A DNA stretch of 64,000 nucleotides from Cyanidioschyzon merolae. Lineage: Eukaryota. Below are positions 12,235-51,512 of the stretch, one piece after another. The stretch's first letter is position 1; every line of letters starts with the position of its first letter. The stretch lies in the NCBI GenBank assembly GCA_000091205.1, contig AP006498.2. One strand, 5' to 3'. A program made the position numbers and the translations under genes. The notes below the pieces were generated by a model that was not told where the DNA came from, did no database searches, and worked only from the letters and a program-made list of their open reading frames with translations.

Positions 12235-12265
12235 CGCAGCAGCAGCAGCAGCAGCAGTAGCAGCG
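12235..12265. repeat. (CAG)n microsatellite in the LMBR1-like/UTP13 divergent intergenic region
   Basis: cagcagcagcagcagcagcagtagcagc. Confidence 0.9.
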
Positions 12266-23095: not shown

Positions 23096-26065
23096 ATGGA
23101 GTCAGAGCTTCCTTGTATAGTGGTTGGTGGCGGTGTTGCTGGTCTTGGAGCGGCTTGGGCGCTTCACGATGCTGGACACCGCGTGTGCGTGCTGGAGGCG
23201 GATCCGACGCACCTCGGAGGGCACGCCTACACCATGGAAGTGCCTGTCTCGGGCTCCAGCCAAATACCTATAGATGTTGGCTTCATTGTGTATAACACTG
23301 AAGCGTACCCGAACTTGGTCGCCTGGTTCGACGCGCTGGGCGTAGAGACGGAGCCTTCGGACATGTCGTTCTCCGTGTCAGTACCTCGCGGAGCAACCGG
23401 CGGCGCTCGTCTGGAGTGGTCGAGTGATAGTCTCTGGACTTTATTCGGCGATAGGCGCAACGTGTTATGTCTGCAGTTTTACGGCATGTTGCGGGATCTG
23501 CTGCGATTCAATAAGGAGGCTATTGCGCTTCTGGAGACACTACCGCTAGAGCTCACGCTCGAACAGTTCCTGGCACAGGGACGTTATTCTGACGCATTCA
23601 GGGACTGGTACCTGACGCCAATGGTTGCTGCCGTATGGTCGAGCTCCCCCAGTGAAGTGCTGCATTTTCCTGCGCGATCCATCCTGGCATTCTTCCGGAA
23701 CCATGGATTCCTCCGGATCTTTGGGCGTCCACAATGGCGCACCGTTCGCGGCCGCAGTCAGGCCTACACCAGCCGAGTGATGCAGGCCTTAACCAGTCCA
23801 TCACAGGCCAATGGTGTGGTATCTGAAGTTCGACTGGGCGCGCGCGTGACCCGCGTGCTTGAACGAAAACAGGATAAGGCTGTCGTCGTCGTCGAGCTAG
23901 AGGATGGTCAAGTTGTGCGCGGCTCTAGAGTAATCTTCGCCACGCACGCTGACGAAACATTGCGACTGCTCGCAGAATGGGCGACACCGGAGGAACGCGC
24001 CTTTCTATCCGCCTTCGAATACGTCGAAAACGAGATTGTCATCCACCGCGACGCGCGCTTCATGCCCCAACGACGTAGTCTGTGGAGCTCGTGGAACTTT
24101 GTCCCACAGGAGGACGGCCGCGCACAAGTGGAGGCAGCGTCAACATGCAAGGTCCAGGTCACGTACTTGCTCAATCGTTTACAGAATCTGCCGAAAGACG
24201 TGCCGCCTCTGTTCGAGACACTCAACCCAGCATTTCCGCCCGAAGAGGAGCTGGTACTCGCTCGTCTGCGTCTTGCGCATCCGATGCTGACGCGGGAAGC
24301 GGTTCTTGCCCAGACTCAGTATCGCGAATCGCTTCTGCGAGACGGTTGCAAACGAGATATTTATTTCGCAGGGGCGTACTGCGGCTACGGCTTCCACGAG
24401 GACGCCCTGACATCCGGCCTGGAAGTGGCACAGTGCATCACAGAGCTGCCGATGCGATCGCTGCTAAAGCAAACCGCGTCGCCAGCTGACAACAAGCACC
24501 GGCGAGCGTTGAACAATCACCAGGGTGCATTACCCCCGGCACGTGTATCTCTCTCCGGCACCGTTGGTCGAGCAGTTCACGCAAACGTGCTCAGCTATCT
24601 CCAACGCTCAATACGTTACGGTTCACTCATTGTGGTCCTGCCTGACGGTACAGAGCATGTTTGTGGCACGCTCAAAGTTAGCGCATCGGATAACCCGCAC
24701 CTTCACCGTTTACTGGTTACATACGGGCTGAACGAGTCGCCCGTGCGCGTGCATATCCGACGATACGACTTTTTTTGGCGCGTTGTCTCCGGTGCCGATA
24801 TCGGGTTCGCCGAGGCCTTCATCGCCGGCGACTGTGATGTCGGCGGCTGGACGTCGCGACACGGCGCTGTGTACACCTGCGCTGGCACCGAGCTAGTGCG
24901 TCTGTTCAAGTTGTTTATCCTGAATCGGGACGAGGGAGCGCTTTCTCCCGCCAAACTCGGTCTCGCAGCGCGCCTAGGCATGTGGTATAACGCAGCCCTG
25001 CACCTTGTATGGCGACGGAATACCCTCCGAGGCAGTCAGAAGAACATTGAATCGCATTATGATTTAAGCAATGACTTGTTTGCTACATTTCTAGGCGATC
25101 TCTGGGTATACTCTTGCGCGCTGTGGGCGCGTCCCGATATGGATTTGGACGAAGCCCAGCGAGCCAAACTGCAGCGCATCATCGAGAAACTCCGCCTCGA
25201 TACCGCGGAGTCTGTGCTGGAGATTGGTTGCGGCTGGGGTGCGCTCGCGATAGAGATTGCCCGCCAGTATCCCAGGGTGCGTGTGTTGGGCATTACGCTC
25301 TCCAGAGAACAGCTGCGGCACGCGCAGGCGTGGGCGGCTCGCGTTGGTGTCGCTGATCGTGTCACTTTCCGTCTGGAGGATTATCGAACGCTGACCCGAA
25401 TGCCAAAAGAGGAAGTGGCGCGTGGCGACGCCGCACAAGCTGGGCGCCCGGTGGATTCGCGTAATGGCCTGATGAAGACGGCAGCCGTCGGGGGCCACGG
25501 ACGCCACGACCTCACCTTCGACCGGATAGTCAGCATCGAGATGCTTGAAGCGGTAGGGCATGAATTCCTCGGGGACTTTTTCGCCGCATGTGATCGCCTC
25601 TTGTCACCGAGTGGACTTGTTGTGGTGCAAGTCATTACAACGCCGGAAGTGCGTTACGAAAGCTACCGCAAGTCATCGGACTTTATCAACAAGCATATCT
25701 TCCCCGGCAGCTGTTGCCCTTCGTTCCATGCGCTGGTTCATGCCTGTGCAGTGGCTGCACCAGCGCTCAGCGTAGTCGATGTCGAGAGCATTGGTGTTCA
25801 CTACGCACCAACGCTGGCGTCTTGGCAGCAGCGTTTCATGGAAAACCTTGGTCGAGTTCGCCAGCTAGGATTCTCTGAGGCATTTATACGCAAGTTTCTC
25901 TACTATTTGAGTTACTGCGAGGCGGGCTTTGCGACTCGGACGTTAGATGATCTGCAAATCGTCTTTTCGCGCCCTGGAAACGTACTGAGCCTGGGGGGCG
26001 AGCCCCGAGTCTCCACCGTAGCCAGGTACCGAGAGCGCGGCGCGCTCGACAGCTCAACGAGCTAG
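23096..26065 (+). CDS. plant-type cyclopropane-fatty-acid synthase fusion protein: N-terminal FAD amine-oxidase domain plus C-terminal SAM-dependent CFA-synthase methyltransferase domain
   Basis: The ORF starts with GTG at 22940, and the first ATG is at 23096, placing the Rossmann motif IVVGGGVAGLGAAWALHDAGHRVCVLEA...GGH at the N-terminus. CFAS motifs are present: ESHYDLSNDLFATFLGDLWVYSCALW and LEIGCGWGALAIEIARQYPRVRVLGITLSREQ. The stop codon is TAG. Confidence 0.8.
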   Translation: MESELPCIVVGGGVAGLGAAWALHDAGHRVCVLEADPTHLGGHAYTMEVPVSGSSQIPIDVGFIVYNTEAYPNLVAWFDALGVETEPSDMSFSVSVPRGATGGARLEWSSDSLWTLFGDRRNVLCLQFYGMLRDLLRFNKEAIALLETLPLELTLEQFLAQGRYSDAFRDWYLTPMVAAVWSSSPSEVLHFPARSILAFFRNHGFLRIFGRPQWRTVRGRSQAYTSRVMQALTSPSQANGVVSEVRLGARVTRVLERKQDKAVVVVELEDGQVVRGSRVIFATHADETLRLLAEWATPEERAFLSAFEYVENEIVIHRDARFMPQRRSLWSSWNFVPQEDGRAQVEAASTCKVQVTYLLNRLQNLPKDVPPLFETLNPAFPPEEELVLARLRLAHPMLTREAVLAQTQYRESLLRDGCKRDIYFAGAYCGYGFHEDALTSGLEVAQCITELPMRSLLKQTASPADNKHRRALNNHQGALPPARVSLSGTVGRAVHANVLSYLQRSIRYGSLIVVLPDGTEHVCGTLKVSASDNPHLHRLLVTYGLNESPVRVHIRRYDFFWRVVSGADIGFAEAFIAGDCDVGGWTSRHGAVYTCAGTELVRLFKLFILNRDEGALSPAKLGLAARLGMWYNAALHLVWRRNTLRGSQKNIESHYDLSNDLFATFLGDLWVYSCALWARPDMDLDEAQRAKLQRIIEKLRLDTAESVLEIGCGWGALAIEIARQYPRVRVLGITLSREQLRHAQAWAARVGVADRVTFRLEDYRTLTRMPKEEVARGDAAQAGRPVDSRNGLMKTAAVGGHGRHDLTFDRIVSIEMLEAVGHEFLGDFFAACDRLLSPSGLVVVQVITTPEVRYESYRKSSDFINKHIFPGSCCPSFHALVHACAVAAPALSVVDVESIGVHYAPTLASWQQRFMENLGRVRQLGFSEAFIRKFLYYLSYCEAGFATRTLDDLQIVFSRPGNVLSLGGEPRVSTVARYRERGALDSSTS

Positions 26066-26585
26066 TGTGCCGGTGTCGTTCGCAACACTCTGTCCGACGA
26101 GGTCCAGCGTAGTGACCCATGCGTGAGCCGCGAGACGCTGTGTAGCACGCCGGTACGCATGGCGGGAGTCAGGCGTTCGGACTTGCGCACATGTCAAGTG
26201 CAGTCTCCGCGATACGCGTAATGCAGTCCTGGGGATGCACGCGTGCTCACGGTATGGAGGGCTGGTCTGACTGCAGCGCGCCCTGACAGTCTTGTTCCGC
26301 AGCACAGTACCTGAACTCGGATGGGAGGCTGCAACTTGGCGCTCTCTCACTCCTTTGATGAGATAGCGTATTCGCAAGCCAATGTATCGTTTTCGTGAAC
26401 AACTCGATTCTGGAGGCTACGGCAGCCGGGCATGCGCATACGAAGGATTCGTGTGCAGCTTGGGGCGCTTTTGGCTCGATCGCTGGCACCGCAGCGCAGT
26501 GTCGAGCGCGGTACCGCCTGCATGCATTCGTACACACGTACGCTGTACATACTTGGAATGAAAATGCAATATTTCCCGAAAGTGT

Positions 26586-27929
26586 TTACATGTGCGACGC
26601 GGGCACCTCATGTGGGCGAGCGCGCCGTCCCCGCGGTCGACGCATTACGAGTCGCACAGGCCGCAACAGAACACGCACCAGCGCCCGCAACAAGTTGACC
26701 AGATATATGCCTGGCTGCGCAATAGCAACGATAAGCGCAATGAGCCGCGCAAGCAATGTTTGCGTGCCCTGCGGATGCGGATAGAACGGAAATCCCCGAA
26801 AGTACAGTTTTGCGGCTTCGTAATGAATAGCAACCATCGCCTGCAGGGTTATCAGCGGATATACGAGCAGGCAGAGGACCATATTCATTGCGGTCAACTC
26901 AACCCGATGTAGTTTCAAACTGGCACCAAAAAACTTTTGGAATCCGCTTGGGGATGCGGATGCATCTCCGTTCGCTGTCGGTTGCCGCTGCAGGAGCTCA
27001 ACGAAGACTCGCAGCTGCCGGCACCCTGGCTGAGAGAATAACCATCTGTACTCGATGCCCTCCATCGCAATAAACGGTGAAACATGGAATTCCTTCGGAT
27101 GCACGACACTGATCACAAAGCACGGCGAGGAGGGCGTGCCCCCGTTCAGCGACGCACCGCTATCGACTCGCGACATGGGTCGCGGGCACCATCGCCAAGC
27201 CGAGGCGGAAGAAGTGCCCGTGGAGGCCGCCGCCGCCACCTCCTGCGAAGAGGCCCCTTCGACTGCCGCTGCCGTTGTTGTCACCGAGGAGCACGCGTGC
27301 CGCTTCTCGTTGCCAGCGAGTTTGTGATAACGATCGCCATCGGTTGCCGGCTGGATACAATCCTCGTTTTCGTCGTCTGGTGGCATCTGGGCTGCATCGT
27401 TGAGACTATTCGTCCGCGAAAACGGTGGCCATGCAACTGAAGAATATTCTCTCGCACGAAGCACATATGCATGCTGTTCAAACCATGGGATATTATTCAC
27501 CTCAGCCACAATGTATTCGACATTTTTCCCGTCTTCGTCGAGAATATAATAGAAGGATACCGGGTTGAAGGCGATGCCGAGGTAAGTGAGGTGCGTCAGC
27601 AAACAAACCCGTCCTTTGGGGGCACTTTCAAGGCGCAGTTCACGCTGCACATAGCGCCGCACAGCAACAGCGAGTAGTTCCGCTTCAGAACCAGCTCCAA
27701 GTGCTGACTTTTCAGGGCCCAGCTCTCGCAGGTGGTGCTTGCTGCGAAACCATGCCACTGCTGGCAACCAGCGCCTTGCACTAAAAAGCGGCCACCAAGG
27801 AAACCGCCAACGCTCCCTCGCCAACTCGTCCAAGTCCAAATAAACCATAAAAAGTGCATAGGAGAACTGGTACGCAGCCGGGTAGCGCCGTGAGTGCGTG
27901 ACGCTCCCACAGTAGAGCGCGGAACGCAT
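26586..27929 (-). CDS. DUF1365 family protein (the partner protein found next to amine-oxidase and CFA-synthase genes in bacteria)
   Basis: The first ATG of the long ORF is at 27929, and the ORF 26586-28337 contains a translated CAG-repeat poly-Cys upstream. The DUF1365 signature is present: LYCGSVTHSRRYPAAYQFSYALFMVYLDLDEL...LTHLTYLGIAFNPVSFYYILDEDG...EVNNIPWFEQHAYVL...EFHVSPF. Confidence 0.7.
   Translation of the reverse strand: MRSALYCGSVTHSRRYPAAYQFSYALFMVYLDLDELARERWRFPWWPLFSARRWLPAVAWFRSKHHLRELGPEKSALGAGSEAELLAVAVRRYVQRELRLESAPKGRVCLLTHLTYLGIAFNPVSFYYILDEDGKNVEYIVAEVNNIPWFEQHAYVLRAREYSSVAWPPFSRTNSLNDAAQMPPDDENEDCIQPATDGDRYHKLAGNEKRHACSSVTTTAAAVEGASSQEVAAAASTGTSSASAWRWCPRPMSRVDSGASLNGGTPSSPCFVISVVHPKEFHVSPFIAMEGIEYRWLFSQPGCRQLRVFVELLQRQPTANGDASASPSGFQKFFGASLKLHRVELTAMNMVLCLLVYPLITLQAMVAIHYEAAKLYFRGFPFYPHPQGTQTLLARLIALIVAIAQPGIYLVNLLRALVRVLLRPVRLVMRRPRGRRARPHEVPASHM

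Positions 27930-28163: not shown

Positions 28164-28164
<1 letters not shown>

Positions 28165-28191
<27 letters not shown>
28165..28191. repeat. (CAG)9 microsatellite
   Basis: cagcagcagcagcagcagcagcagcag; it translates as poly-Cys or poly-Leu in spurious ORFs. Confidence 0.9.
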
Positions 28192-28194
<3 letters not shown>

Positions 28195-28334
28195 CCGCGC
28201 CATCCGCAGGGCAGCGTACGGAGCGGCAGGCACTGGTGCGATCGCTGTCCAATGATGGGCAGTTTCTCGAAGACGAAACGTTCACGTGGACCATGGATCC
28301 CAGATTGTGGGGTAGATATTCGCGCTGGGGAAAG

Positions 28335-28660
28335 CATCCACGAATCTGTACTCTGCCTTCAAGTTCGGTTCCTTACTCTTGCTCTAGGATATTCTGGTGG
28401 TTTTGTACGTAATATCGAGCGTCGAGTGCCTGCTCTGAGTATCCACGAAACTGTACTCTGCCTTCAAGTTCGGTTACTTACTCTTGCTCTAGGATATTCT
28501 GGTGGTTTTGTACGTAATATCGAGCGTCGAGTGCCTGCTCTGAGCATCCACGAATCTGTACTCTGCCTTCAAGTTCGATTACTTACTCTTGCTCTAGGAT
28601 ATTCTGGTGGTTTCGTACGTAATATCGAGCGTCGAGTGCCTGCTCTGAGCATCCGCCGGA
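28335..28660. repeat. 105-bp tandem repeat array, about 3.1 units, forming the subterminal region of transposon copy c2
   Basis: The unit catccacgaatctgtactctgccttcaagttcggtt(c/a)cttactcttgctctaggatattctggtggttt(t/c)gtacgtaatatcgagcgtcgagtgcctgctctgag starts at 28335, 28440 and 28545. One diverged unit lies in each c1 TIR, one at 38700-38800, and a partial unit at 57790-57840. Confidence 0.85.
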
Positions 28661-47759: not shown

Positions 47760-50605
47760 TTACCGCGGTGAGCGCGTTGATGTCGACGCTGCTTCTGAGG
47801 CGGCCCCGTTGGCTCCTTCGCCCGAATGCCTCTGATGCAGGGGATTCCCCACAGACCCGTGTTTCGATGCGGTACGTTCCCGCAGCCCGGTCGCCTTGTG
47901 TTTCCGTCGAGCGCAAGCGCGCCGTGCACGACCAACGGTTTCCACAGCATGCTGCGGGGCGTTGGTCACCATCGCGGCTAGTACGGCACCCGTCTGCGCT
48001 GCTAGCTCGGTAGCGAGTTGCGCTACCTGATCGGCCTCGTGTGGGAACGCCTGGTAGGCTGCAGCCACCACAGAGGGCAACGAGAATCCCGCAGTCAACG
48101 AAGCGATCATGAACGATCGGGCATCGATGGCAGCAGCTTGGACCTGCGGGGTGGACTGCCCCGAGACACCCCCGCTTATCGGTGCATCGCTTCCGTTCCG
48201 AATCGAATATACAGCAGCGGTTCGCTGAAGTCGCGGATCCAACGCACTTGCAAAGGCCACTGCAGCCGTCGACGCGGCACCTGTGGAGCTGTCTCTCGCA
48301 GCGCTGGTTGGTGCTTGGCTTGACGCCGCTGCCGCCGGCGTTGCGGCCCCGTCGCGGGTATCCATGGCATCGCTCGACACAGACCTGGTCGATGACGGCC
48401 TCGGGGGTATCGAGCCTGCCGCTCCGCTCCCGGAACCGGACGCTGTGGCGCTGCTCCTGTGGCGCTGCAGCCACGATTGGACCAGGTCGCTCGAGGACTC
48501 AAAATAGAGACCGCGCTGCTCCGCGTCGCACAAGAGTGCATCCCAGTCGGCGCTGTGCGCTCTGAGAGCGGCCGCATGACCCAGCACCACGAGAGATACT
48601 TTGGCCCGCGTCAAGGCCACATTCAGGCGACGAACATCTCCAACAAAGCCAATACCACTGCGATGTTGCGCGGTACGCACAGCCGAGAATATGATGACGT
48701 CCTTTTCCCGACCCTGGAATGCATCCACAGTATCGATTTCGATGGTGCAGGGCATCTGCTGCCCCGGCAGAATGAGGCCGCTCTGGTCGAGTGCCTGTTG
48801 GAGCAGACGCATCTGCGCTCGATACGGTGTCAAGATGCCAAGATGCCACACCCGATCGGATGCTTTCCAGTAGCGCTCATAGAGGATCTCCACAAGCTGC
48901 ATCGCAAACGCCGCCTCCTTGGGATTACTCAGCGACGCTGTCGTAGCGTCCCGCTCCTCTGTAGCCTCGGCGATATCTACGAAGCAGTACGGGCCCAGAA
49001 GCGGCGGCGGTGGCCCAGTCCGATGAAAAGCTGGCCGATAGAGCTCGCTGCGTACGCAATCGTCATTCTTGAGTTGATTTTGGTAGAACCAGCGTGTCGG
49101 AAACGTCGCAATCGCAGGATGCATACGATACTGGGTGTCAAGCAGGTGACCGGTCCAGCCGGCTTGCAGCAGACGTTCCATGAGCGATCGAGCGAGCGCC
49201 ACGCCTGCATCACCTCGACTGAAGACGGTTGCCGGGAGCTGTTGCGGGTCACCGGCTAGCACACAGCGTTCGCACCCGTACTGCAACGGAATCAGGGTAG
49301 CGAGCTCCGTTGCTTGTGCGGCCTCGTCGATGACGACAATGGGGAACGTGCTCGCGCGTGCTTGGAACGCACCATCCAGCGTGGAAACGCTCTCCCCGGA
49401 GCGCTCCGGTAGCGATCGCGCCTCGCTCGCTAGCGGTGCGTCCCGCAGCCACGACTTTATCAGGGCGGCACCGCTGAGCGTGCAGAGCACAATCTCGGCC
49501 TCTTCGAGGTATGTTCCGGCAATCCAAGCAATGCGCTGCTCGCGGCTGATCCGTTGATCCGGCCAGGTTGCCATGCGATAGCGTCGCTCGTCTCGTTGGA
49601 GGCGATCCAGGCGATCCCAGAGCCGCATCAGGCGACCTCGCGCCTCCAGGTCGTGCTGCGGTGGAGCGGGCGTCTCAAGTTGCCCCAGCAGCGCTCTGCA
49701 TTGTTGTTCCCAGTGTTGAATCCATTCTGCGGAATGTTTCGCACTTTCCAGCGCTTGCAGGAAGGCTTCTGCACGAGCCTCGGCAGTCACTGCTCGGGCT
49801 TTGGGATGAACTCGGGCTCCGGCTCCGATTCGAACGATATCAGGATAATAGGTGCGCAGTTTCCCATCGACGAATCCTTCGCGCATGATACGGACAACGA
49901 TTTCATCCACAGCAGCATTGGATTGTGCGGTGACAAGCAGGCGCGGTTTGCGTTGCAATGCAGCAGTATGACGAGCTGTGCGCAGAGCGCTGAGCTTCAC
50001 TGCTGCGGTTGCTGCAGCAGTGGTATTTCGAACCGAATCCAGTAACTGTTCCAGAATGGGTTTTGGTGTCGAGTCCGTCCCGGCAGTCGGCAACGTCGAT
50101 TGGTCGCATGAGGTCCTGGGACGTTCTTCTTCCTGTGCCGCTGGAGATCCAAGTGCGCTCAAGTACGCGTCATAATATTCCTGGTACTTGCTCATATGCA
50201 ACAAGTTCAGCAAAGAGAGCAAGGTTTTCGTTTTCCCGGTACCAGGCGGGCCATGAATCAACGCGAATCCTCTTTGACGGTGCACGGAGGCCCGCACCGC
50301 CTCGTACTGGGATCGATTGAGACCTCGCTGGTTCGAAATCACCGCGAGATATGCATCCAGTTCGGATCGCTGCGGCCCAGGGGCCAGCTCACGCTGCTGC
50401 TCCGCTGCAGCACCTGCCGGATCCAGTATCACAGGAGCCAGCTCCATCTCTGCGATACTGGAGAGCGCACCAAGCTCGCGTGCGTGGTTCAGCGTGCTCA
50501 TGAGACGTATTGCTGGCGTCGGCGGGGTACATGCGGCGTTTTCGGATCCTATGGCGCTGTTCAAGGGACCTGATGAGCAATCTGTGCGAGCTGTTTCCCA
50601 TTGAC

Positions 50606-50639
<34 letters not shown>

Positions 50640-51512
50640 AAGCCAGGCTTCGGCACGTGCACGTTGCATGCGTAGCATCAGCGGTGAGCCCGCCCGGTGC
50701 TGGACAATGCCCAGAAGAGGTTGTTGCCGAATCTCGCGTAGCTGAGCGCCCGTAAGGCGCTGGTCCTCACGCGTACACGGAAGCAACAGCAGAATATCAT
50801 GATCAAAAATGGTTTCTTTGCTCTGAATCTTAATGGGAACTTCCACTAGTGCACTTGATCCCGGTTCGTCGTGAGTTGAAACCGGCTCTGCTGATACCTT
50901 GGTGGCGCCTCGTGGCTCCACTGGAACTGGATCGCCTCGAGTGCTTACCAGCACCACGAGGCCAGACTTTTCTGGCGTCAGCGCTGCGGAGAGTGTCCGC
51001 AGAACACTATCAAACGCGTTGTAGAGCTCACTACATACCTCTATGTCGACGAGCTGCGTGAAGAAGGCGATGTACTCGTCGGGGTTCCGGAACGGAAGGT
51101 TCTCCGCCTCCGAGGACCTTTTGCAGGCACCAGCAACTGCGTTAACTGAAGTTAGAGAGTTTGGCCAATTTTTCGGTTCACTGGACAGAATCCGGTCCAA
51201 AGCCGCTCGCATACCGACATTGACGTTTGCAAACGGTGCACCGGTGGTACTGATAAACGCTGTAGGGAGTGTGTTTTGTTCGCGTAAACGATACCAGAAG
51301 AGTGATACAGTGTTGGCCACTGTGTCTGCGGTGTGGCCCGATGCGTTGGAGGGCGTGCGCGCGGGCGTGGCAGCTACAGGACTGTCGCCGAGCGGCATCT
51401 TGCATCTATATGCTTCACCGCGAGCGGCTCTCAAGCGTTCAGTTGGGAATTCCTGGTCCAGTGTGAACGTTCCTTCGAACCAGAAAAATGGTAAGGAAAC
51501 ATTCTCGGTCAT
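47760..51512 (-). CDS. superfamily-1 RNA/DNA helicase, Sen1/Upf1-like (DNA2/NAM7 family, AAA_11/AAA_12)
   Basis: The ATG start was verified. Walker A is LIHGPPGTGKTKTL. Motif II is VVIDEAAQATE. The C-terminal helicase motifs are VDAFQGREKDVIIFSAVR and VALTRAKVSLVVLG. A polyQ run (Q10) is encoded by (CTG)n on the top strand at 50608-50640. The C-terminus is Ala/Ser-rich. Confidence 0.8.

Follow-up and report, generated by a model that had tools for sequence, protein, structure and literature searches.

Furan fatty acids (FuFAs) are potent radical scavengers in algae, in plants and, via the food chain, in fish; biosynthetic genes for them are proven in no more than two bacteria, those proposed in plants being putative. 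In R. sphaeroides and R. palustris, the three proteins UfaM, UfaD (RSP1091) and UfaO (RSP1090, a DUF1365 protein) are necessary and sufficient for the formation of 9M5-FuFA (Lemke et al. 2020, PMC7380195). UfaM is a methylase similar to cyclopropane-fatty-acid synthase (CFAS), UfaD is a desaturase similar to flavin adenine dinucleotide (FAD) amine oxidases, and UfaO carries out an O2-dependent ring formation; the three work one after the other on cis-vaccenate that is ester-bound in phospholipid, and O2 supplies the oxygen of the furan ring (PMC7380195). That UfaD desaturates 11Me-12t-18:1 to the 10t,12t diene in an O2-dependent reaction was shown only for the R. sphaeroides enzyme (PMC7380195). 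Here we describe a locus within a 64-kb stretch of DNA from Cyanidioschyzon merolae (hereafter the window), in which a gene that fuses a UfaD-like (D) to a UfaM-like (M) domain stands tail to tail with a DUF1365 gene (O). We consider it reasonably probable that this locus is the FuFA biosynthetic gene set of C. merolae, in the form of a conserved two-gene nuclear cluster. As in the Ufa system of R. sphaeroides and in RPA2569-2571 of R. palustris (PMC7380195), the same three protein families are present, intact and physically linked, and share a glutamine (Gln) signature. However, the bacterial ufa genes are three separate genes, D-O-M, co-transcribed from one strand, whereas in C. merolae a single polypeptide comprises D and M, and O is encoded by a separate, convergent nuclear gene.

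Related systems have also been described in photosynthetic eukaryotes. Arabidopsis encodes the same fusion, AtUFAMD1 (AT3G23510), and a DUF1365 protein, AtUFAO1 (AT1G30130), which co-localise on lipid droplets (Omata et al. 2024, PMC10940516); together with LIME1/AtFUFM1 (AT4G33110) these are proposed, unproven furan-fatty-acid enzymes (PMC10940516; review PMC13247531). The likeness to C. merolae lies in the D::M fusion and the stand-alone DUF1365 protein, and the third methyltransferase, of the coclaurine N-methyltransferase (CNMT)/LIME type, is matched in the Galdieria cluster described below; the Arabidopsis genes, however, are on three different chromosomes, while those of the Cyanidiophyceae are adjacent, and the function of either set is putative. 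Singlet oxygen induces the Chlamydomonas genes CFA1, CFA2/CPLD27 and Cre06.g269300, the last a DUF1365 gene, together via SAK1 (Wakao et al. 2014, PMC4067076). Members of all three families are hence co-regulated in a photosynthetic eukaryote, which supports a shared role in stress lipids, yet the Chlamydomonas genes are not adjacent, unlike the C. merolae pair. Finally, the plant cyclopropane synthases (CPS) SfCPS (Sterculia) and GhCPS1/2 (cotton) also consist of an N-terminal FAD-oxidase domain of ~400 aa and a C-terminal CFAS-like domain (Yu et al. 2011, PMC3132707). These enzymes have a degenerate motif for S-adenosylmethionine (SAM) and a proven cyclopropane product, whereas the C. merolae protein, compared with them by published description, has an intact VLEIGCGWG; an intact SAM motif is also present in GhCPS3 and the Arabidopsis clade. 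No DUF1365 partner has been described for the plant CPS enzymes, unlike the C. merolae locus.

The fusion gene (23096-26065, + strand) is an open reading frame (ORF) running from the ATG at 23096 to the stop at 26065 and is of the UFAMD type according to its Pfam matches. Its 989-aa product is 100% identical over the full length to BAM81709.1 among the deposited proteins of C. merolae 10D, where it is annotated as a 'probable mycolic acid methyl transferase'. The predicted D domain, with a UfaD-like FAD amine-oxidase fold (23096-24433, + strand; approximately residues 1-446), matches Amino_oxidase (PF01593, 2.8e-19), DAO and, at its N-terminus, NAD_binding_8 (PF13450, 6e-13). The FAD dinucleotide-binding motif GGGVAGLG is intact at residues 11-18, and the nearest solved structure is the amine oxidase LkcE (6f7l, E 4e-21, residues 6-446). 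The closest bacterial relatives of the D domain are oxidases encoded beside a DUF1365 gene and a CFAS-like gene (35-40% identity, in 79 of the 80 DUF1365 loci of the survey below); the identity to the operon-encoded D of one gammaproteobacterial locus, L016, is 38%.

The predicted M domain, a UfaM/CFAS-like SAM methyltransferase (24734-25972, + strand; approximately residues 547-959), is made up of a CFA-synthase-like N-terminal lipid-binding region and a SAM-dependent catalytic domain, with CMAS (PF02353, 5.8e-74, C-terminal) matched in two stretches. A low-complexity loop of ~40 aa is found at residues 768-806. Among solved CFA synthases, the M domain matches E. coli CFAS (6bqc, E 4.9e-44) and 5z9o (1.1e-37), and the alignment to E. 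coli CFAS extends from the lipid-binding N-region through the C-terminus. The SAM motif VLEIGCGWG (residues 706-714; VLDIGCGWG in E. coli CFAS) is intact by the definition VL(E/D)xGxGxG of Yu et al. 2011 (PMC3132707). Full-length homologues of the fusion protein occur across eukaryotes with 35-71% identity, and the alignments to plant, green-algal, red-algal and diatom fusions have 96-100% coverage; the D::M fusion is present in Porphyridium, plants, green algae and diatoms and also in the non-photosynthetic Cafeteria and Corallochytrium. An earlier note on this DNA had recognised the plant CPA-FAS architecture, and this holds, since the oxidase is N-terminal, the CFAS-like domain C-terminal, and the protein groups with eukaryotic fusions. 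A UfaD-like N-terminal domain is also found in ~950-aa florideophyte-type proteins (P0082 and ~40 similar ones, from Gracilaria, Agarophyton and metagenomes); the ~500 residues that follow it have no Pfam match and no recognisable CMAS.

The DUF1365 gene, of the UFAO type, lies on the opposite strand (26586-27929, - strand; ATG at 27929, stop at 26586) and encodes 447 aa with a match to DUF1365 (PF07103, 2.8e-59). The protein is 100% identical over its full length to BAM81710.1, deposited as 'hypothetical protein, conserved'; BAM81709.1 and BAM81710.1 carry consecutive accessions in the same 908-kb chromosome record. A trypanosomatid source, which GC content and long ORFs might suggest, was rejected in view of this identity and of homologues in Cyanidiales. 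Both gene models, a 989-aa oxidase::CFAS fusion and a convergent DUF1365 gene 520 bp away, had been put forward in the earlier note and coincide with the annotated ones. The start at 27929 is supported by homologues in relatives, which align from residue 1. A longer ORF from the ATG at 28337 (583 aa), in which the CTG repeat would be read as poly-Cys, was rejected, as the extension is not conserved and both the orthologues and the deposited protein start at 27929. All 12 columns that are invariant in an alignment of 100 sequences are present (G118, P123, N146, P148, W149, K279, H282-P285, W296 and P301), and the N-terminal half is 45-50% identical to gammaproteobacterial proteins.

The AlphaFold2 model of the DUF1365 protein has a beta-rich core with a predicted local distance difference test score (pLDDT) above 90. 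Alignment and model place a lineage-specific low-complexity insertion inside the fold (27126-27413, - strand; approximately residues 173-268), which is missing from Galdieria, Porphyridium and bacteria and is predicted to be disordered (pLDDT <50 at residues 173-175 and 177-268). Two hydrophobic helices are located towards the C-terminus (26676-26903, - strand; residues 343-370 and 391-418, Kyte-Doolittle maxima 2.28 and 2.13) and appear in the model as long helices at 347-377 and 392-421. The first is conserved in bacteria and the second is an extension in the eukaryotic proteins; they are a probable membrane or lipid-droplet anchor. The C. merolae protein differs from bacterial UfaO by the disordered insertion of ~100 aa and the extra C-terminal helix, and its furan-forming activity is predicted from its sequence. 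With these two genes, the known UFAMD/UFAO (UfaD-UfaM/UfaO) families gain new members; they do not represent a new kind of system.

We then compared the locus with the 80 closest DUF1365 loci in prokaryotes, taking one genome per species. These loci are mostly from Gammaproteobacteria and also from Burkholderiales, Solirubrobacterales, Planctomycetota and Vicinamibacteria. In 72 of the 80, D, O and M are co-directional and abutting in this order, with median gaps of -64 and -11 nt, in agreement with the earlier note, which had seen in the three domains a conserved bacterial operon; its description of that operon as being of unknown function is outdated, as this is the ufaD-ufaO-ufaM furan-fatty-acid operon, solved in 2020 (PMC7380195). 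In an annotated example (L016, 152-8033, + strand), the genes follow one another as M2 (a second methyltransferase), DUF2878, DUF1295, DUF6134, lipocalin, fatty-acid desaturase, D, O and M. The accessory genes of the bacterial cluster recur 27-49 times across the 80 loci and, except for M2, have no counterpart in the algal loci examined. The algal arrangement is not collinear with the bacterial operon, and its derivation from it needs both the departure of O from the interval between D and M and an inversion. Natural fusions join the domains in other combinations, namely D::O in a bacterium (P0109, P0116) and D::M::O on intron-free metagenomic contigs (P0060). Such fusions constitute Rosetta-stone evidence, read from sequence, that the three activities would work together. 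Just upstream of the bacterial D::O fusion gene (L094, 9409-11598, + strand) is a DUF2177 gene (L094, 8823-9233, - strand); a DUF2177 gene is also listed in the SAK1-dependent singlet-oxygen regulon of Chlamydomonas.

The convergent fusion/DUF1365 pair is kept in five other cyanidiophyte genomes or contigs, those of Cyanidiococcus yangmingshanensis, a related metagenomic species, Cyanidium caldarium, Galdieria partita and G. sulphuraria. The pair is present on both sides of the Galdieria-Cyanidioschyzon split, which it precedes, and its convergent orientation, being the same throughout, suggests that it was already there in the common ancestor of the Cyanidiophyceae. The earlier note had made its reading depend on the adjacency being conserved in relatives, and across the Cyanidiophyceae it is. 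Its claim of a retained bacterial-style linkage holds only in a loose sense: the linkage exists, but its layout is D::M followed by an inverted O and not D-O-M on one strand.

In both Galdieria species, a stand-alone methyltransferase of the CMAS family lies directly upstream of the fusion gene in divergent orientation, giving a three-gene cluster (L005, 8742-9916, - strand, in G. partita; L007, 8765-9922, - strand, in G. sulphuraria). This protein is of the M2 type: it is only 22-24% identical to the M domain of the fusion itself, versus 45-52%, over the full length, to the bacterial M2, which in 47-49 of the 80 loci is encoded no more than 6 kb from D-O-M. The Galdieria clusters hence contain all four domains of the bacterial cluster, M2, D, M and O. 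The Galdieria methyltransferase also strongly resembles plant coclaurine N-methyltransferase (1.3e-75), and the CNMT/LIME type was equated with the second furan methylase FufM by Omata et al. 2024 (PMC10940516). No M2 was found in the window or in the Cyanidiales loci examined, a statement that covers the loci only. In the literature searched, we found no description of the class-wide conserved pair or of the three-gene Galdieria cluster.

We infer the products of the algal enzymes and their membrane location from homology. On this basis, the UfaM-like domain would transfer a methyl group from SAM to an acyl chain with one cis double bond, esterified in a membrane lipid, and so form a methyl-branched trans-alkene, which the UfaD-like FAD domain of the same polypeptide would desaturate to a conjugated methyl-diene. 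The UfaO-like DUF1365 protein, anchored through its C-terminal hydrophobic helices at the surface of the membrane or lipid droplet, would then insert one oxygen atom from O2 and close the furan ring, and the furan product may serve as a scavenger of radicals and singlet oxygen in the photosynthetic cell. The functional coupling of these genes, one of the possibilities raised in the earlier note, is well supported by the demonstrated bacterial pathway, by the D::O and D::M::O fusions and by the class-wide adjacency despite differing flanks.

As the nearest solved relative of the M domain is E. coli CFAS, we asked whether the site of its catalytic bicarbonate is conserved. The two proteins share the lipid-binding region and the SAM site, and of the side-chain ligands of bicarbonate in E. 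coli CFAS (Glu239, His266 and Tyr317), Glu239 and Tyr317 have equivalents in E818 and Y903 of the fusion protein. The position of His266, however, is occupied by Gln845 (window 25628-25630), and the E. coli enzyme has neither an oxidase domain nor a DUF1365 partner; the complete ligand set of cyclopropane synthases is not present. All correctly extracted operon-linked bacterial M proteins and nearly all eukaryotic fusions have Gln at this position, and Glu is found in diatoms and in two other stramenopile-like fusion sequences. Because Gln replaces His266, as in the operon-linked M proteins and the eukaryotic fusions, Gln845 would mark membership in the operon-type subfamily; it argues against simple membership among E. 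coli-type cyclopropane synthases, not against the UfaM-type subfamily, and does not by itself fix the product. Gln at this position is a possible marker separating UfaM-type enzymes from classical cyclopropane synthases. Such a placement fits with previous observations in yeast, where neither the operon-type oxidase/CPS-like pair of Agrobacterium nor the GhCPS3/Arabidopsis clade gave a cyclopropane fatty acid (PMC3132707).

These residues bear on the possibility that the fusion protein is a plant-type cyclopropane synthase, making dihydrosterculate-like lipids with an oxidase domain that only stabilises or assists, and that the DUF1365 protein is unrelated to it in pathway. The architecture is that of the Sterculia and cotton CPS, for which 30% of the activity is kept without the oxidase domain (PMC3132707), the nearest solved relatives of the M domain are cyclopropane synthases, and the Glu and Tyr of the bicarbonate site are conserved. 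Nonetheless, we regard this possibility as unlikely, since Gln takes the place of the His266 ligand, as it does in bacterial enzymes of the operon type, the Agrobacterium pair and the widespread GhCPS3/Arabidopsis clade did not yield cyclopropanes, and the class-wide DUF1365 linkage, the D::O and D::M::O fusions and the demonstrated three-enzyme pathway speak for a shared pathway.

It could also be argued that the genes are functionally related and that their adjacency is a neutral accident of genome compaction, without selection for clustering. In C. merolae, the facing stop codons are separated by a convergent intergenic spacer of 520 bp (26066-26585), which must contain the 3' ends of both genes. 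Cyanidium and G. partita have only 26-27 bp at the equivalent place, Cyanidiococcus and the related species 0.7-1.0 kb. Tail-to-tail genes whose 3' ends abut or overlap are hard to separate undamaged, and a breakpoint in a spacer of 26-27 bp would damage a gene, so that a neutral component in the linkage is likely. Moreover, convergent genes cannot share a promoter, and conservation of the pair inside the Cyanidiales alone says little, because the Cyanidiales share 86% collinear genes according to a published genome comparison. In the same comparison, gene order between Galdieriales and Cyanidiales was not strongly conserved. When the 25 large ORFs of the window were compared with the 22-kb Galdieria loci, only the pair had clear counterparts, the other matches being a weak one to an RFC paralogue and one of the helicase family. 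The latter concerns an AAA_11/AAA_12 helicase-family gene directly adjoining DUF1365 in Galdieria (L005, 13830-16628, - strand) and a gene of the same family in the window at 47760-51512 (- strand), ~20 kb from the pair, with 33-46% local identity; it could be a remnant of wider synteny, a possible hint in favour of neutrality, or merely a paralogue.

Neutrality accounts for the persistence of the pair and not for the original adjacency of pathway genes, for which the chance of meeting a named partner is 2/4774, or ~4e-4, with a gene total of ~4,775 as quoted for C. merolae, nor for the third gene in Galdieria. In addition, the pair persists despite a spacer of 520 bp to 1 kb in Cyanidioschyzon and Cyanidiococcus. 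An adjacency without any selection for clustering hence seems improbable to us. As in a metabolic gene cluster, non-homologous genes of pathway type adjoin one another beyond the background synteny, with only two such genes in C. merolae.

In the tuberculostearic acid route, a methylene intermediate is made by a methyltransferase and then reduced. By analogy with what was proposed for the mycobacterial tuberculostearic-acid pair, the fusion could make methyl-branched or methylene fatty acids, with the FAD domain acting as a reductase and DUF1365 as an accessory. The Porphyridium orthologue was automatically named 'Tuberculostearic acid methyltransferase UfaA1', and oxidase and CPS-like genes also adjoin in Mycobacteria (PMC3132707). 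However, this route needs no DUF1365 protein, yet DUF1365 adjoins the fusion across the Cyanidiophyceae and stands between D and M in 72 of the 80 bacterial loci, and the operon-type UfaD has been demonstrated to desaturate rather than to reduce (PMC7380195). We therefore hold this explanation to be quite improbable.

The age of the genes was examined with neighbour-joining trees (Kimura distances, 100 bootstraps) in which the eukaryotic fusions and the DUF1365 proteins were combined with 24 bacterial operons; the trees are crude, use simple distances and take as their bacterial sample the closest prokaryotic relatives found. The eukaryotic D domains form one clade with 81% bootstrap and the eukaryotic M domains one with 63%. 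In the O tree, Cyanidiales, Galdieria and Porphyridium group at 92%, and Chrysoparadoxa joins them at 78%. No bacterial sequence nests inside the algae in these trees, and no cyanobacterium is found among the 80 closest prokaryotic DUF1365 loci. A recent horizontal acquisition or a plastid origin was rejected as a candidate in view of the trees, the shared fusion and the taxonomy of the closest bacteria. The earlier note had considered a relatively recent acquisition by horizontal or endosymbiotic transfer. The domain phylogenies it called for, run here for D, M and O, place all three in eukaryotic or red-algal clades instead of showing a recent bacterial acquisition, the fusion is widespread in eukaryotes, and the taxa of the closest loci speak against cyanobacteria. 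From the sequences, therefore, recent horizontal and plastid-derived transfer is not supported, because D, M and O fall in eukaryotic or red-algal clades and the fusion is widely shared; an ancient bacterial ancestry of the genes is likely, and a bacterial transfer, if single, would predate the diversification of red algae. The view that the linkage itself goes back to a bacterial operon acquired recently, by horizontal or endosymbiotic transfer, is largely refuted and very improbable: Cyanidiophyceae are known recipients of bacterial genes (published), and the similarity to bacteria of the N-terminal half of DUF1365 (45-50% identity to gammaproteobacterial proteins) and of the extra methyltransferase of Galdieria (~50%) would fit, yet the D::M fusion is common to Porphyridium, plants, green algae, diatoms, Cafeteria and Corallochytrium, the trees place D, M and O among eukaryotes (81, 63 and 92/78%), the pair is older than the Galdieria-Cyanidioschyzon split, and the algal gene order is found in none of the 80 bacterial loci, which include no cyanobacterium.

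Several observations weigh against the locus being a FuFA gene set kept together as a conserved cluster. Regarding the chemistry, the bacterial substrate is cis-vaccenate (PMC7380195), and a suitable monoene would be needed in C. merolae. Because the Sterculia and cotton GhCPS1/2 fusions are genuine cyclopropane synthases (PMC3132707), the product of an M domain cannot be read from the architecture. The eukaryotic fusion and DUF1365 families have no member with a demonstrated FuFA activity, the plant roles being putative (review PMC13247531), and we found no report in the literature of a furan fatty acid in any cyanidiophyte; nor did we find any literature on cyclopropane fatty acids, or on the expression of these genes, in cyanidiophytes. 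Regarding the trees, support is modest at some nodes (33% for the red-algal grouping of D; that of M has 70%), and the O tree contains no green-plant DUF1365 protein, the top 120 homology matches being only red-algal, stramenopile and bacterial. Regarding the linkage, none of the 80 bacterial loci has D-M followed by an inverted O, so that the algal order is unmatched. In Porphyridium purpureum, the pair is unlinked: a tblastn search for DUF1365 as a convergent neighbour of the fusion gave no match, and DUF1365 was found on a different contig. In Phaeodactylum and Coccomyxa, no DUF1365 gene is found less than 10 kb from the fusion gene, and conversely the sequence surrounding DUF1365 contained no fusion gene in Chrysoparadoxa (10 kb in one direction and, in the other, the ~4 kb left before the contig ends) or in an uncultured alga (up to 10 kb from DUF1365). 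The Arabidopsis counterparts lie on different chromosomes, the pair being unlinked (PMC10940516), and the Chlamydomonas genes have distant identifiers on chromosome 6 and are not adjacent (PMC4067076). As the genes are unlinked in every non-cyanidiophyte checked, the linkage may be a secondary assembly or a passive survivor in compact genomes.

The question of whether the linkage is a rearranged operon relic or a de novo cluster is thus a separate one, and we consider the relic somewhat more likely, although unproven. In its favour, three adjoining Galdieria genes carry the four domains of one bacterial cluster, for which a secondary assembly would need two independent relocations, and the D::M::O fusion has the same D-M-O order. 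On the other side, the order and orientation are unlike those of every bacterial locus examined, and since the lineages examined outside the cyanidiophytes are all unlinked, a simple count favours one gain over several losses. If the linkage is a relic, eukaryotes would have gained the genes long ago from a bacterial operon of the ufa type (M2...D-O-M), and D and M would have fused early, giving the fusion common to many eukaryotic groups. The ancestor of the Cyanidiophyceae would have carried a gene for a FufM/LIME-like second methyltransferase side by side with the fusion and DUF1365 genes; Galdieria would have retained all three and the Cyanidioschyzon/Cyanidiococcus/Cyanidium lineage the convergent pair. 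A bolder version can be offered only tentatively, as something possible but rather doubtful: the cyanidiophyte cluster of a FufM/LIME-like methyltransferase, D::M and DUF1365 might be the rearranged remnant, more than one billion years old, of the operon that seeded all eukaryotic UFAMD, UFAO and LIME genes, with an ancestral linkage that was lost elsewhere and was selected because the intermediates are harmful unless the steps are inherited and expressed together.

The surroundings of the pair are those of a nuclear locus: it is part of the 908-kb record, and its flanks encode an RFC subunit, an RNA polymerase subunit, Sec6, a VTT-domain protein and MutS. A (GCA/CTG)n microsatellite is located at 28164-28195 (Tandem Repeats Finder, 10.7 GCA units). 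The earlier note had pointed to a (CAG)9 tract just upstream of the likely DUF1365 start; the tract is real, with nine perfect CTG/TGC units on the DUF1365 strand, but lies 235-266 nt upstream of the ATG at 27929 and not directly adjacent to it. Comparable GCA/TGC arrays of ~10 units occur at 12236-12264 and 50608-50638, and no such array is found upstream of the DUF1365 orthologues in relatives. Because it is one of three arrays in the 64 kb and is absent from the orthologous upstream regions, the tract counts as an ordinary microsatellite, nothing hints at a role for it, and the idea of a regulatory function was dropped; such trinucleotide repeats are common in the C. merolae genome. The region between the DUF1365 start and the Sec6 gene is unusually long (5.3 kb, compared to ~1.9 kb in Cyanidiococcus), its GC content falls to ~0.515, and it contains a 105-bp unit repeated 3.1 times with 96% identity (28333-28654). 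No tRNA or Rfam match was found anywhere in the window, this 5.3-kb region included.

Fatty-acid desaturase genes were also observed next to some of the homologous loci. One is directly upstream of the D::M fusion and divergent from it in Phaeodactylum (L089, 6738-8099, - strand) and in Coccomyxa (L090, 6553-9002, - strand), and one is directly upstream of D in the bacterial operon L016 (3784-4758, + strand). Orthology among these desaturases was rejected, since tblastn detected no mutual similarity, and their position may reflect coincidence or convergent clustering.

In summary, comparison between species lends independent support to a cooperation of the fusion and DUF1365 proteins in eukaryotes, through the conserved pair, its three-gene form in Galdieria and the triple fusion. 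In C. merolae, an alga that has ~4,800 genes, recombines homologously and is genetically tractable, the candidate enzymes are encoded by adjacent single-copy genes, so that one deletion or replacement of 4.8 kb could test the pathway. If the reading as an ancient operon remnant is true, this would be the first place where a single deletion removes eukaryotic furan-fatty-acid synthesis. The locus is also an example of genes derived from a bacterial operon that are still clustered in a nuclear genome, which is of moderate relevance to the evolution of eukaryotic gene clusters. Hence, it offers a compact test case, useful rather than revolutionary, for how eukaryotes make furan lipids.

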